From Vulcanimicrobiota bacterium (GTDB taxonomy: Bacteria; Vulcanimicrobiota; Vulcanimicrobiia; Vulcanimicrobiales; Vulcanimicrobiaceae): 64,000 bases of DNA. The stretch spans positions 2,272,001 to 2,336,000 of the forward strand of contig OY970223.1 in NCBI GenBank assembly GCA_963714015.1, written 5' to 3'. Position numbers: made by a program. Of the stretch, positions 24,001-30,000 are shown piece by piece. Position 1 is the first letter of the stretch. Every line of letters begins with the position of its first letter.

Positions 24001-27000
24001 GCTCCGCCGTTCGGCATAACGCTTGCGGGCGAGCGGGTCGTAAACGGCGGCGCTTTTGTGATCCCGGCAGCGGGCGCGAATGCGATCGAACGGCTTGCTT
24101 CCGACTTTTTCAACGCCCGAAAAAGCCGGGTGCGCATGGCACGGCTCGCCGGAGCGGGTCTCCTGCTGCGTTTTTTGTTCCGGCGTTTGAGCGTGGCGAC
24201 ACTCGAATCGCGAGCCCGCGCTTTGCTGGGGTTTGCTGCGGTCGCGGTTCGCGGCGCGCCGCCCGAGCTGGCTTACGACGTCGACGTTTTGGAGGAGTAT
24301 CAGTATGCGCTCACGCGAGCCTAACGCCGCGCTGCTGGGACTGTTCTGGTTCGGAATTCAAGCCGTTTGGGGAGCACTGCTCGCAATCTCTCTGCAGGTG
24401 CGCGCCACGCAGCTCGCGCCGCATGATGCGCTGCGGCTTTACGGTCTGCTGGCGGGTGCAGGCGCAGCTCTTGCCGCGGTGACGCAGATCGCAGCCGGAA
24501 TGTTTTCGGACCTGCGACGCACGCACGGCAGCCGCCGGACGGAATTTTACGTAACGGGCGCGCTCGTTGCCTGCGCCGGCTTATTCTGGTTTTACCTAGC
24601 CCCTTCCATCGCGCAGCTCGTCGCGTCGCTCTTGCTCGTGCAACTCGCCATGAACGTGGCGATTGGACCGTATCAAGCGGTCATTCCCGACTTTGTGCGC
24701 GACGAAGATCTGGGGACGGCTTCATCTTGGATGGCAGCACTGCAGAGTTTGGGCAATGCTGCAGGCGCGATCGCGGCGTTCGCGATATCTCAGGCGCGAT
24801 TCGTCGCGGCCGCGCTTGCAGCAATGCTGCTTTGCACGTGCGCTGCGACCGTGCGCCATGTCCGCCATTTGACGCCGCTGCAAGTCACAAGCGAGCCGCT
24901 TCGCCTCTCGCGCGCGTTCGTCGATCTCTTTATCTCTCGAGCGTTCGTGTATCTGGGCTTTTACACGCTGCTGGGCTATCTTTTCTTCTACGTCGCCGCA
25001 ACGATCGGCGGCAGCGCGAAAGAAATGACGGGATTCGTGGTCCTGGTCGTCACGTTGACCGGTGCGATCGGCGCATGGCTGAGCGCTGCACCAGCCAATC
25101 GCATGGATCGGCGCGCAGTCGCAACGGCGGGCGGCGCCGGGTTCATAACGGCGCTTGCCGCATTCCTGATTTCGCATTCGGCCGTATCGATTTTTGCCAG
25201 CGCGGCGATTGCCGGCGGAGTCTGGGGAGTGTTCCTGACCGCGGATTGGGCGCTGGGATGTGCGTTCTTACCACGTTTTGCATTGGCCACCGCAATGGGT
25301 ATATGGAACCTTGCGCTGCTGATCCCGCAAATTGCCGCACCGCTGATCGCAACGGCGATATTGTCAGGGCTGGGAATCATGCAAAAAAGCAGCGCCCCCA
25401 GAATCGCATTCGTTCTGGCGGCGGTAGAAGTGCTCGCCGGAATCGCCTGGATCTGGCGCTTGCCTGCCTCGTCGCGCCCCGCGGTTGAGTCCGCATTTGG
25501 TGGGAATACTCCCTAAGGCTGTCGGGCAGGTGGAACTTCAAGGCCACCCTTGCCCGTTAAAGCAGTATGGAGACCGGGCGCCAGCGTGCCTTTGTGCTCA
25601 AAGCAAGTGCGACGGTTTCTAAACTCGAGTTTAGGAGGCAATTTTGAAACGACTGAGCACCGGAGTCCTGACTTCGCTCGTTATAGCAAGTCTGGGGCTT
25701 ACTGCGGTCGCCGCTCCGTCGGGCCATGCATCACCGGGCAACATTGGATCCAAAGTGATCGCACAGGCCACGCCGTCAGCATCGCCTGCAGCGTCGACAG
25801 CTCCGGCTGCGACGCCGATGGCGTCGCCGTCGGCAGGAACTGCGACGCCCTCGGCCGGGACTGCGACACCATCGGCCGGTACTGCAACGCCGATGGCTTC
25901 GCCGGCCGCTCCCGCGGGCGGAACGGCACCTTCCACTCCGGCGAACATGCCGCCGATGCAATTCGGATCTCCACCTTCGGGTGAGATTCCGATTCTCTTC
26001 AACGACCACCACGTTTACTCGAAACCGGACGTCCTAAAACAAGGACGCGTTCTTTCTGCGCTCGTTCGCGGCGGAACGATTCTCGTGCCGTTGCGCTCGA
26101 TGTTCGAGCAAATGGGCGCGACGGTTTCTTACGATCCGGGAAGCAAAACGGTCGATGTGACCAAGCCGGGTTCCGACGTAAAAGTTACCGTCGGAAGCCC
26201 GCAAGTAACGATTAACGGCGAAACGCGTCCGCTGGACGTGCCGCCGATGATGTATCACGGTCAGATCCTCGTTCCGGTTCGTGTGATCTCCGAGGGCATG
26301 GGAGCGTACGTGCAATGGGTGCCCGATAAGCGCCTTGTCGTCGTGCGTTATCTGCCGCCCACGCCGCCGCCGCCGCCCGCTCCGCCGCCGCCGCCGTCAA
26401 GTGCTGCGCCGGCCGCGACGCCGGCTCCGGCTCCCAAGAAAGTAACGAACGAAGTGTTCGTCGCCGGCGATTACCTGCTCGGACCGAAGGTGTACAACGA
26501 GTTCGATCCGGGCGTCAAACAGCCGAATGATTCATCTTATGCAGCGCGCGGCGCGTTCGAGTTCAACGCGTTGAGTCTGCCGTGGATGGTCGAAGGCGAG
26601 TATCGCCAGTGGGGCTATCAGCATAACGCAACCGTCATACCGACGATTCCGGGAAGCTGCGCCGTCAACGGCGTTCCCGCAGGCGAACCGGGCTGCGTCA
26701 CCATCATTGGTGGAGGCGGCCAGACGTGGGTTGCGCCGTTCAGTCCGAAGGACAATGACGTCGATGGACGTCTGGGTCTGAAGGTTCTGGATCCGCGCGT
26801 CTACATCGGCGTGAGCTATCTGGGACGGTGGACCAACTACGGTTACCCGCGCCAGAGCGGCGTAGGCTTCGGGCTGGAGAAACTGCCCGACCTCGACCGT
26901 CCGCTCTCGATCTACGGCAGCGCGTACTACTACCCGCAGGTCAAGGGTACGTGCGACACGGGCGTATGCCCGACTGGTCCGTTCTCGCTCGAATACCGCA

Positions 27001-30000
27001 TCTTCCGGTACGAGATCGGCGCGGACTACAGTATCCCCGGCACCCCGGTCTTCGTTGAAGGAGGCTGGATTGGCGACAACGGCAAGAACAAGACTGAACG
27101 CGCCTTCCGACTTCTCGCACAACGCAGGATACGTCGGTATCGGCATACACTTCTAGGAATCCGTCCTAATAGAAAAAGGCCCTCGGGGTTCCGAGGGTCT
27201 TTTTCTATTGCGGACGGTTCCTACGGTTGGATGGGGCCCCCACGTACCTACCATCGCGGCGAATCCGATGCCGAGCAACCGTCGCTGTAGGGTGAGCAAG
27301 CGTGAAGAGGCCTGGAGGCGGCGGCGCGCGACTCGGCGGCTTGACCGTAAACGGCAGGTCCGGTAGAATAGCCTCTTGGTGCCGGACCATCTCTCCCGGC
27401 CCTGCTTCGGGGTGCTTAGCCCACTGCCGAAGCCGGACGCGTTCGCCGCGCGCTCGGGATCAGATCGCACAATGCCCACGGCATCGTTGCGGTCGAGGCG
27501 ACGACACCGCGATCGTTTCGCGGATAGGAAAAGCACGGAGTCAATGGCAGCTGAAAAAGCAGGCGAAGTCGCGCAAGAAGCGTGAGTTCAAGAATGTTCA
27601 ATCGGGCGTCGCGCACATTCATGCGTCGTTCAACAACACCGTCGTGACGATCTCCGACAATCTCGGAAACGTCATCGCGTGGGCATCCGCCGGGAACCTG
27701 GGATTCAAGGGTTCCAAGAAGTCGACACCGTTCGCGGCGCAGATGGCTGCCGAGGCGGTCGCGCGCAAGGCGATGGAGCACGGCATGAAGTCGACCGAGG
27801 TTTTGGTTAAGGGTCCGGGCGCCGGACGCGAAGCCGCAATCCGTTCACTGCAAGCCGCCGGGCTGGAGATCACGCTCATCAAAGACGTGACGCCGATTCC
27901 GCACAACGGCTGCCGGCCGCCCAAGCGGCGCCGCGTCTAACGAAAGCGCAAGAGAGAGTTTAACAGATGTCGAGATATACCGGACCCGTGTGCCGCCTAT
28001 GCCGCCGCGAAACCGCGGCGAGCAAGACCGGCGAAAAGATCAAGTTGTTTCTCAAGGGCGATCGCTGCCTTTCGAAAAAATGCGCCGTCGAGCGCCGCGG
28101 CACCGCGCCGGGTCAGAAGACGCAGGGCAAGCAGCGTCAGAAGGTCAGCGAGTACGGACGCCAGCTGCGCGAGAAGCAGAAGATGCGCCGCTACTACGGC
28201 GTTCACGAAACGCAATTCGAAAACTACTTCCGCGAAGCCGCGCGCGTTCCGGGTCAGACCGGCCGCACTTTCCTGCAACTTCTGGAGCGGCGGTTGGACA
28301 ACGTCGTTTACCGTTTGAATTTGGCGAACAGCCGCGCGCAGGCGCGCCAGCTGGTTACCCATCGCCATTTTCGCGTGAACGGGAAGCTGGTCAACATTCC
28401 GTCGTACATCGTCAAGGCGGGCGACGTCATCACGATCGGCGAGCGCAGCAAAAAGTCGCCGGTTTTCGAAGCGAACTTCGAAGTCGCGAAGAATCGGCGC
28501 GCGCCCGAATGGCTGGACTGGAGTGAGACGGATCAGAGCGCTAAGGTGCTCCAGGTCCCCAGCCGCGAACAAATCGACACCCCCGTCGACGAACAACTGA
28601 TCGTCGAATACTACTCGAGATAATGTAACCACGAGAAGCCGCTGCTAGGCGTGGGATCGCTTGTAACTGGGTTACGGCGGATAACGTAAGCAGCAACAAA
28701 GGAAGCCCAAAGTAAAACCATGACCGTATTGGACACACCCCAAGGCGCCGGCATTGAGGTTCGCGAGCGCCACGACAACTACGCGAAGTTCGTCATCGAG
28801 CCGCTGGAACGCGGTTTCGGCATAACGCTCGGAAATGCGCTGCGGCGCATCCTGCTCAGCTCGATTCCGGGCGCGGCCGTCACTTACATGAAGATCGACG
28901 GCGTGCTGCACGAGTTCTCGACCATCCCGGGCATCGTGGAAGACACGATTGCTCTAATGCTCAACCTCAAGGGTCTCCCCGTCAAGCTGAATACCGACGA
29001 ACCCAAGGTGCTCACGCTCAACGCATCGGGTCCGAAAGACGTTACGGCCGCAGACATCACGCCGGACGCCGACGTCGAGGTTCTCGATCCGAACTACCAT
29101 CTCGCGACGCTCTCCGCCAAAACGGCGAAGCTCTCGATGGAGATCGGCATCGAAAAAGGACGCGGGTACGTTACCGCAGACCGCCAGCGCAACGTCGAGC
29201 ACATGATTGGCCTGATCCCGCTCGATTCGATCTTCTCGCCGATTCGCAAGTGTAACTTTACCGTCGACGACACGCGCGTCGGCCAAAACGTCGACTTCGA
29301 TCGCCTGACTATCGAGATCGAAACCAACGGTTCCGTTACGCCGGACGAAGCGCTCTCTACGGCCGCGATCATCATGCAAGAGCAGCTCGACTTGTTCGTC
29401 AACTTTACGAACGAAGAGAAGCCGCTCCCGCAGGCGCCGGCCAGCGAGTGGGACATCCCGGTCGAAACGCTCAATCTCTCCGTGCGTTCGTTCAATTGCC
29501 TCAAGCGCGCAGGCATTTCGAAGGTCTCGGAGCTGCTCGACATGACCGAAGACGAGATCATCAAGATGCGCAACTTCGGTAAGAAGTCGCTGGACGAGAT
29601 CAAACAGGTATTAGAAGAAAGGGGACTCTCGCTCCGCCAGTAATCGTCGCCCTTTGAACGATTATTGGTAGACGGGAAATACATATGCCGCATCAGATAG
29701 CATATAAGAGGCTCTCGCGCACGGATGGCCACCGCAAGGCGCTTCTGCGCAATCTGGCTACGTCGTTTTTCAAGCACGAAAAGATCGAGACGACGTCGAC
29801 GAAGGCCAAAGAGGTCAGCAAGGTCGTCGAGCGGTTAATCACCACAGCTGCGCGCGGAGATCTGCATTCGCGCCGTCTGGTGGCCGAGTATCTCACCGAA
29901 CCGGCGGTCGTAAAGAAGCTCGTCGAACAGATCGCCCCGGCGCTGAAAGATCGCAGTGGAGGCTACACGCGCATCACGAAGACGCGCGTTCGTTCGGGCG

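Follow-up and report, generated by a model that had tools for sequence, protein, structure and literature searches.

Four kinds of outer-membrane tether are known, namely Lpp, Pal, OmpA and OmpM. In the diderm Terrabacteria, OmpM is regarded as the tether, and it has been suggested that cells can become single-membraned by losing it. In OmpA and OprF, an 8-stranded barrel is combined with an Ala/Pro-rich hinge and a peptidoglycan-binding OmpA_C domain, and in Alphaproteobacteria beta-barrels are covalently linked to the wall in an LD-transpeptidase-dependent manner. OmpM of diderm Firmicutes (VpOmpM1) and SlpA of Deinococcus, which occur in Terrabacteria-type diderms possessing CsaB, consist of a periplasmic module with an SLH domain, a spacer forming a trimeric coiled coil and a C-terminal barrel, for which 16 strands are given in the case of VpOmpM1 (PMC10628300).

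The gene described here (g02429) is located on the forward strand in a window of 64,000 nucleotides, which is the whole stretch analysed from the genome of a Vulcanimicrobiota bacterium. The ORF as assembled (25644–27290) starts with TTG and encodes 548 amino acids; if one extra base at 27093 is skipped, the restored gene extends from 25644 to 27156 and comprises 503 codons and a stop codon. The signal peptide (MKRLSTGVLTSLVIASLGLTAVAA, approximately residues 1–24, 25644–25715) was read directly and is conserved in relatives, and its cleavage site was inferred from the sequence. It is followed by an N-terminal extension (25716–25961) with a short conserved motif (GNIG..IAQA) and a spacer of variable length, rich in Ala, Pro, Thr, Ser and Met, which is predicted to be disordered. 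In 56 sequences the distance from the start codon to the stalk module, signal peptide included, ranged from 36 to 137 amino acids. The stalk module (residues 107–236, 25962–26351) is composed of a conserved pre-stalk strand, FGSPPSGEIPILFNDHHVY, and a Cu_amine_oxidN1 domain (PF07833, residues 139–233; E 3.6e-26, 91.7 bits at a cut-off of 24.2). A Pro-rich linker (approximately residues 237–270, 26352–26453), delimited with the model and a linker survey of relatives, connects this module to a predicted 10-stranded outer-membrane beta-barrel domain (26454–27153), which belongs to no curated family and ends with YVGIGIHF. In 66 sequences the linker was 32–56 amino acids long (median 38) with 41% Pro; when extended, it is estimated to span about 10 nm. 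Reading frames, Pfam and AlphaFold2 agree with the order of signal peptide, spacer, stalk, Pro-rich linker and barrel described in an earlier note on this DNA.

The C-terminal half of the 548-residue ORF gave no Pfam match at E ≤ 0.1. When residues 250–484 were used as query, 155 proteins were found at E ≤ 1e-3, and PF07833 was present in 119 of the 120 proteins among those listed. An AlphaFold2 model of a relative with 84% identity (P0002), calculated from 66 sequences, showed ten long antiparallel strands over residues 257–489 (mean pLDDT of 10-residue blocks 83–98). A Foldseek search of the PDB with this barrel yielded 29 matches at E ≤ 1e-3; all matches listed are outer-membrane barrels, with the Legionella porin I (9nh1), OpcA, Pla/OmpT, OmpF and OmpG at the top. 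The best fold matches, which are OpcA (1k24, 2vdf), OmpT/Pla and the Legionella Dot/Icm porin I (E 1e-6 to 1e-4), reached TM-scores of at most 0.63 on the target at 10–15% sequence identity, and none of them carries an N-terminal periplasmic domain. The Pfam models of the OpcA family (PF07239) and of the omptins did not match the protein, and the likeness to OpcA is one of fold only. In the restored frame, the terminal YVGIGIHF resembles a beta-signal with an aromatic end. The motif ..G[LI]G[ILFV][HK]F terminates 55 of 59 barrel ORFs examined; of the remaining four, one has the variant GLGIxF and three are broken or atypical at this point. The prediction of an outer-membrane beta-barrel with an N-terminal stalk domain is supported by these data, and the modelled C-terminal barrel looks like a BAM substrate, being all-beta with an aromatic terminal residue. 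The barrel fold and its frequent connection to PF07833 had both been claimed before and were recovered here, while the suggestion of a major porin found no support: ten strands correspond to OpcA and OmpT, as opposed to 16 in OmpM and OmpF. Relatives consisting of the barrel only exist as well, so the barrel also has a function independent of the stalk. Look-alikes in the Atlas named Gemmatimonadota and Vulcanimicrobiota are leads only to where these relatives belong.

Compared to OmpM and SlpA, the order of periplasmic module, spacer and barrel is the same, and a non-covalent tie to the wall is proposed in both cases. However, the protein lacks an SLH domain according to the Pfam search, its spacer is the Pro-rich linker without any helix in the model, and its barrel has 10 strands instead of 16. 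Like OmpA and OprF, it combines in each chain a small barrel with a hinge rich in Pro and a single globular domain in the periplasm, but the order is reversed with the barrel at the C-terminus, PF00691 is unmatched and there are two more strands than in these proteins.

In an indel survey of relatives, the presumed outer loops L2 (24–78 amino acids) and L4 (2–21 amino acids) varied, while the turns T1–T3 were constant with 2, 3 and 7 amino acids. Within the protein, conservation is highest in the stalk module (top-residue frequency 0.87, no indels), which comprises 130 amino acids in 78 of 81 distinct sequences. Because the loops vary while turns and stalk module stay fixed, the stalk module is most probably periplasmic, as the earlier note had assumed. 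As shown by computation, the barrel termini and the short fixed turns are predicted to face the periplasm, and the linker of about 38 residues would hang the rigidly conserved 130-residue stalk module below the membrane. This pattern also bears on the idea that the stalk domain is a passenger which leaves the cell through the C-terminal barrel or next to it, as in an autotransporter, and acts at the surface as an adhesin. Signal peptide, N-terminal globular domain, linker and C-terminal barrel are indeed arranged as in classical autotransporters, the adhesin OpcA is among the nearest barrel folds, and a cluster of look-alikes in the Atlas is named autotransporter/OpcA, although this is a lead only. 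However, neither the Autotransporter model (PF03797) nor that of OpcA matched at E ≤ 0.1, the model has 10 strands and not 12, its linker contains no helix, and a highly conserved, indel-free stalk next to two hypervariable barrel loops is the opposite of what is expected for a passenger. Surface display is thus very improbable.

The stalk domain belongs by score to the same PF07833 family as domain 1 of the E. coli amine oxidase, the N-terminus of a Paenibacillus superoxide dismutase (PaSOD) and the 'stalk domain' proteins of Firmicutes. A stalk-only model (pLDDT 82.6) matched amine oxidase domain 1 with Z 9.3 (rmsd 2.5 over 76 residues, 26% identity), and all other VIA rows of the fold searches had Z values of at most 5.5. 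A sequence search of the PDB with the stalk likewise returned amine oxidase domain 1 as the sole relative. In PaSOD, a Cu/Zn enzyme, the N-terminal PF07833 domain is stated to form the dimer interface (PMC10432803), whereas here the domain is fused to a predicted outer-membrane barrel. Stalk domains were reported on wall hydrolases of Firmicutes (PMC4137172), and in the genome studied here a stalk-like domain precedes an Amidase_3. Searches of the literature on the stalk domain, OmpM and tethers of Eremiobacter/Vulcanimicrobi found no description of a fusion of PF07833 to a barrel, and an outer-membrane protein of this build appears to be previously undescribed.

The known tethers were also searched for in the genome itself. 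No matches to SLH, LPP or YkuD (LD-transpeptidase) were obtained, and the only OmpA-family match is MotB (MotB_plug and OmpA), flanked by MotA and FliM. BamA and LpxC are present, and a TolC-like gene was detected by tblastn. It is thus supported that this organism is a diderm by gene content with none of the four known tether types, and both halves of this statement confirm what had been noted earlier. A cultured relative is described as a diderm with thin peptidoglycan (PMC9758169). As in the covalent system of the Alphaproteobacteria, a barrel protein is proposed here to serve as the tether; since no YkuD match was found in this genome, such a covalent attachment is improbable here, and it was set aside.

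The barrel domain was detected in all 93 sampled other genomes of the class and in none of the 57 genomes taken from the phylum's other classes, which supports that the protein is restricted to this class and present throughout it. SLH domains showed a different distribution, with 56 of the 57 genomes of other classes being positive (sampled ORFs were OmpM/SlpA-like) in comparison to 42 of the 93 within the class. The 51 SLH-free genomes of the class include kin and are not independent. It is supported that SLH loss was seen almost only in the lineage having the stalk-barrel protein. Among 81 genomes of the family, 17 have neither an SLH domain nor an OmpA match, and BamA and LpxC were kept in all five of these 17 that were tested. 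Some relatives possess other candidate tethers, which are SLH lipoprotein-like ORFs and OmpA-domain ORFs of roughly 800 amino acids, and barrel copy numbers showed no visible difference between SLH-positive and SLH-negative genomes. The earlier view that the protein replaced OmpM upon its loss from the family is too simple in view of the coexistence with SLH proteins in 42 genomes and of the other candidate tethers.

The best-fitting explanation is that the protein is a staple in the style of OmpA or OmpM, which ties the outer membrane to the wall, and we assign a probability of about 0.4 to this reading, since the periplasmic stalk, the distribution and the missing tethers fit it best. The stalk module would dock non-covalently on peptidoglycan or on a secondary polymer pyruvylated by CsaB, so that outer membrane and wall would be joined by each molecule. 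An ancestral OmpM/SlpA-like SLH tether may thereby have become dispensable and would then have been lost in many lineages including this one. The tether reading had also been put forward in the earlier note; barrel, periplasmic stalk, class-wide presence and absence of known tethers speak for it, but the solved relatives of the stalk are only amine oxidase domain 1 and the dimerising SOD domain. The coexistence with SLH proteins, the barrel-only relatives and the other candidate tethers likewise speak against it.

Several of these observations fit an outer-membrane protein that acts as a structural element or small channel and uses its periplasmic stalk, for example, to associate with itself or to dock a protein partner of the periplasm, while another system attaches the outer membrane in SLH-free members. 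The dimer interface of PaSOD (PMC10432803) is a precedent for such a role, each of 150 out of 151 genomes of the phylum encodes 2–13 secreted proteins with PF07833 irrespective of the tether, barrel-only forms exist, and in many genomes the stalk-barrel protein is found alongside OmpM-like proteins. However, the 17 SLH-free and OmpA-free diderm genomes would then be left without a tether candidate, and neither the concentration of SLH loss in the class with the stalk-barrel protein nor the retention of CsaB would be explained. This alternative is possible but somewhat unlikely.

The CsaB equivalog (263 bits compared with a cut-off of 213) was found in 92 of the 93 genomes of the class. According to published work, CsaB is found together with SLH and the two are lost jointly (10.1101/2021.05.31.446380). 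Retention of CsaB where SLH is gone fits the suggestion in the earlier note that a different module now reads the pyruvylated polymer. The co-occurrence of PF07833 with CsaB is uninformative because both are nearly universal in the phylum. That the stalk is a second, SLH-independent reader of this polymer and, mounted on a small barrel, the sole tether in the SLH-less more than half of the class is a doubtful extension of the staple reading. Eremiobacterota are absent from the main text of the tether preprint, but genomes of this kind may be listed in its supplementary sheets.

In this class of diderm soil bacteria, SLH proteins are repeatedly missing while genes for LPS, BamA and a true CsaB are retained, and a tether-like protein built from different parts is present in every sampled genome. 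If the stalk binds the wall, a new attachment system would be added; as the sole tether and second polymer reader, the protein would represent a fifth way of fixing the outer membrane, one that departs from the OmpM dependence held to be the rule among diderm Terrabacteria. Furthermore, if the wall is bound, the widespread PF07833 domain would gain a function, and the loss of OmpM without loss of the outer membrane would be accounted for. The cultured relative makes the tether idea directly testable.

The extra base (27093–27095; AAG A CTG here, AAG CTG or AAG ACG in relatives) puts the last barrel strand out of frame. Translation in the frame of 27003 gives ..GWIGDNGKNKTERAFR.., and in that of 27001 it gives ..LNAPSDFSHNAGYVGIGIHF with a TAG stop at 27154–27156, while relatives continue GKNK-LNAPSDFSHNAGYVGLGIHF without interruption in the alignment. 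A second copy (contig 1565160–1566600) is broken across at least three frames. These observations would also be compatible with a recent pseudogene in this organism, in which the extra base is genuine, last strand and beta-signal are lost and neither copy is functional. However, the 20 codons that follow the shift are undamaged and agree with those of relatives, and their stop codon lies 24 bases short of a hairpin with a T-run (27180–27205), which is terminator-like on both strands. Moreover, the penicillin amidase and SBP_bac_5 genes within the window are split in the same way, as are all four neighbours found of the second copy (CN hydrolase, an ORF, HlyD and TolC-like). The completeness of this one-contig genome is 89.6% in comparison to 93–100% in relatives, and the protein family is present in all 93 relatives. 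A pseudogene is accordingly improbable, and since other genes of the assembly are split in the same way, the frame change is most likely an assembly error. The frameshift reported earlier is thus present in the assembled sequence, but the broken state of both copies is probably an artefact. In a codon-adaptation proxy based on only four reference genes, the percentile rank was 63 for the whole gene, 99 for its barrel part and 47 for its stalk part.

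The open reading frame that the earlier note had placed at 25644..27290 on the forward strand is present there, and so is the stalk domain claimed for its product, as Pfam matches Cu_amine_oxidN1 (PF07833) at residues 139–233 (E 3.6e-26) and leaves the C-terminal half without any match. In the NCBIfam search the protein matched no family except for a weak match to the amine-oxidase stalk region. The frame change that had been described was also recovered: past ..GDNGKNK the coding sequence continues in another frame as LNAPSDFSHNAGYVGIGIHF, up to a stop codon at 27154–27156 that lies 5' of a hairpin with a T-run (27180–27205). 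Intact relatives possess one unbroken frame (GKNK-LNAPSDFSHNAGYVGLGIHF in P0002, a relative 84% identical to the window protein). Comparison with the DNA of nine relatives revealed one extra base in the window at 27093–27095; if this base is skipped, the protein comprises 503 residues.

If the extra base were real, the gene would be a recent pseudogene in this organism, which is improbable and does not depend on which of the three functional readings discussed below applies. We think that the gene is not broken, because the 20 codons past the frame shift are undamaged, other genes are split in the same manner, and the completeness of this genome (89.6%, a single 3.56-Mb contig) is below that of the relatives (93–100%). 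The penicillin amidase (16618–18979, reverse strand) and the SBP_bac_5 gene (60308–61853, forward strand) are each divided into two neighbouring ORFs whose matches follow on from one another along the profile. The overlapping AAA_16/TPR-HD pair (18833–22205, forward strand) and a HAD hydrolase without its N-terminal half (53400–53852, forward strand) are possible further split genes, and all of these look like single-base assembly errors. Of five genes queried around the second, broken copy of the stalk-barrel gene (1.5652–1.5666 Mb of the contig), four were found, namely a CN hydrolase, HlyD, a TolC-like gene and an unnamed ORF. Each of these was matched as at least two separate pieces, whose ends overlap in three cases as would fit a frame change, and the copy itself was likewise matched in more than one piece.

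The AlphaFold2 model, calculated from an alignment of 66 family members and numbered according to P0002, comprises a signal peptide, disorder that ends near residue 100, one short strand followed by the stalk domain at 123–222 (pLDDT 60–91 as means of 10-residue blocks), a Pro-rich linker without structure and ten long strands at 257–489 (block means 83–98). Foldseek returned 29 PDB matches at E<=1e-3 for the barrel; among the matches listed, all are outer-membrane barrels (Legionella porin I, OpcA, Pla/OmpT, OmpF, OmpG, FadL). The proposal of a major porin found no support, since the barrel is 10-stranded and barrels of this size with known structure are not known to be general porins. Membership in the OmpM, OmpA, autotransporter and OpcA families was excluded by their defining domains; in design, the protein resembles both OmpM and OmpA.

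Within the 66 sequences, the stalk module (pre-stalk strand and domain) showed the highest conservation of the protein, with a top-residue frequency of 0.87 and no indels; of 81 distinct sequences taken from related loci, 78 have a module of exactly 130 aa. The barrel strands reached scores of 0.58–0.79. Loops L2 (24–78 aa) and L4 (2–21 aa) vary in length, whereas turns T1–T3 are constant with 2, 3 and 7 aa; long variable loops and short turns are the usual pattern of outer loops versus periplasmic turns. This pattern predicts a periplasmic position for both barrel termini and therefore also for the stalk module and the linker (32–56 aa, median 38, 41% Pro). The segment from the start codon to the stalk module, signal peptide included, measures 36–137 aa. 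What emerges from the calculations is an outer-membrane barrel to which an invariant stalk module, predicted to be periplasmic, is tethered by a Pro-rich linker. Display at the cell surface is very improbable.

A search with residues 250–484 yielded 155 proteins, with PF07833 in 119 of the 120 listed. The profile of the barrel alone detected 338 representatives at E<=1e-3, among them barrel-only forms in which just a Pro/Ala/Thr-rich stretch separates the signal peptide from the barrel. When 24 longer or unusual representatives were scanned, 11 showed the stalk domain (10 above the Pfam cut-off, one as a weak partial match). Barrel-only relatives of 215–326 aa include P0135, P0142, P0148, P0164, P0168 and others, and a few barrel relatives (P0125, P0208, P0230, P0260) carry other N-terminal regions without assigned family.

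The distribution was analyzed in 151 genomes of the phylum with a completeness of at least 85%. The barrel occurred in all 93 other genomes of the class (f1 81/81, f2 2/2, f3 10/10) and in none of the 57 genomes of the remaining 16 families. SLH matches were found in 56 of the 57 genomes of other classes and, within the class, in only 42 of 93. Without the unpublished genome G116, the class counts are 92/92 for the barrel, 42/92 for SLH and 91/92 for CsaB, the pyruvyl transferase acting on the wall polymer. The computation shows that the stalk-barrel is universal in a class where the ancestral SLH tether is gone from many members.

In the SLH ORFs that were read from other classes and from one class member (open frames of 860 and 935 aa, of which the first 570 and 633 residues were read), a signal peptide and a single SLH domain are followed by a heptad-like stretch and then by a long beta-rich region; we read them as probably OmpM/SlpA-like. 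In all five class genomes re-examined, from two genera, the SLH matches lay in open frames of 287–382 aa with one to three matches each. The two of these that were read are not OmpM-like, since they have a lipobox-like start (..LLMTAC or ..LGLAAC; L109:1249–2214 in G047 and L110:1072–1944 in G039, both forward strand). These two ORFs comprise 290–321 aa with an Ala/Pro/Ser/Thr linker and 1–2 Pfam SLH matches each, and in some genera of the class such ORFs may encode an SLH lipoprotein that serves as a tether in the manner of Pal. OmpA-family matches were present in 56 of 93 class genomes, mostly in MotB-sized ORFs and in some of about 800 aa. In several class genomes, ORFs of ~770–860 aa (e.g. 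L104:2489–4933, reverse strand, in G033) carry a C-terminal OmpA-family domain without any other Pfam match and are possibly another wall-binding envelope protein. Neither the small lipobox-like SLH ORFs nor these OmpA-domain ORFs were found in the genome of the window.

As the earlier note had stated, this genome has no SLH and no LPP match. Its single OmpA-family domain belongs to MotB with a plug domain, flanked by MotA and FliM. A YkuD LD-transpeptidase was also not found in it. BamA, which had been reported, was detected together with LpxC. In the combined tables, 17 of the 81 f1 genomes had neither an SLH nor an OmpA match, each with 2–4 barrel matches, and all five of these that were tested possess BamA and LpxC. 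In sections, the cultured member of the phylum, the relative Vulcanimicrobium alpinus WC8-2, is reported to show an outer membrane covered with LPS and a peptidoglycan that is thin (PMC9758169).

We infer that the stalk module would dock on the wall layer and that the protein would thereby tie the outer membrane to the wall; this reading is tentative (probability about 0.4). In a surfaceome paper, the stalk domain is described as frequent in wall hydrolases, and none of four non-SLH probes labelled cells (PMC4137172). In the own genome, a secreted Amidase_3 cell-wall amidase (contig 1771589–1773493, L102:1315–3219, forward strand) carries a divergent stalk-like domain at its N-terminus (21.4 bits, below the cut-off; hhalign 67%, E 5e-5). 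A role of the stalk module unrelated to the wall is somewhat less likely. In a Paenibacillus SOD, the Pfam-assigned stalk domain forms the dimer interface (PMC10432803), and the only solved relative of the domain detected by structure and sequence searches is E. coli amine oxidase domain 1. Four more secreted proteins of this genome combine the stalk domain with Ig-like or unassigned regions (contig positions 542891, 1467228, 2752892 and 2798550).

With regard to a wall polymer as partner, the genome encodes a single-copy pyruvyl transferase above the NCBI CsaB equivalog cut-off (263 versus 213 bits; contig 321784–322881, L103:1270–2370, reverse strand), adjoining a DUF5693 gene. CsaB orthologues occurred in 147 of 151 genomes irrespective of SLH, and the presence in 92 of 93 class genomes means that CsaB is retained where SLH was lost. 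PF07833 was found in 150 of 151 genomes (2–13 matches each), so its co-occurrence with CsaB is by itself uninformative.

The gene order is NTP-transferase, MFS, stalk-barrel gene and rpsK-rpsD-rpoA-rplQ. Of the best 80 public loci, 39 have the NTP-transferase and MFS genes directly upstream and 37 have rpsK downstream, sometimes with an intervening tandem copy. As in relatives, the second paralogue (region 1560615–1569981 of the contig) has a CN hydrolase on one side and a divergent HlyD/TolC-like pair on the other. In the window, the ribosomal superoperon (15015–30038) is interrupted by a block of ~12 kb, which is flanked by rpmJ-rpsM (15015–15572) and rpsK-rpsD-rpoA-rplQ (27605–30038) and ends with the stalk-barrel gene. 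A region of about 5 kb (39900–45300) showed only short ORFs in the ORF listing and may contain RNA genes or be non-coding.
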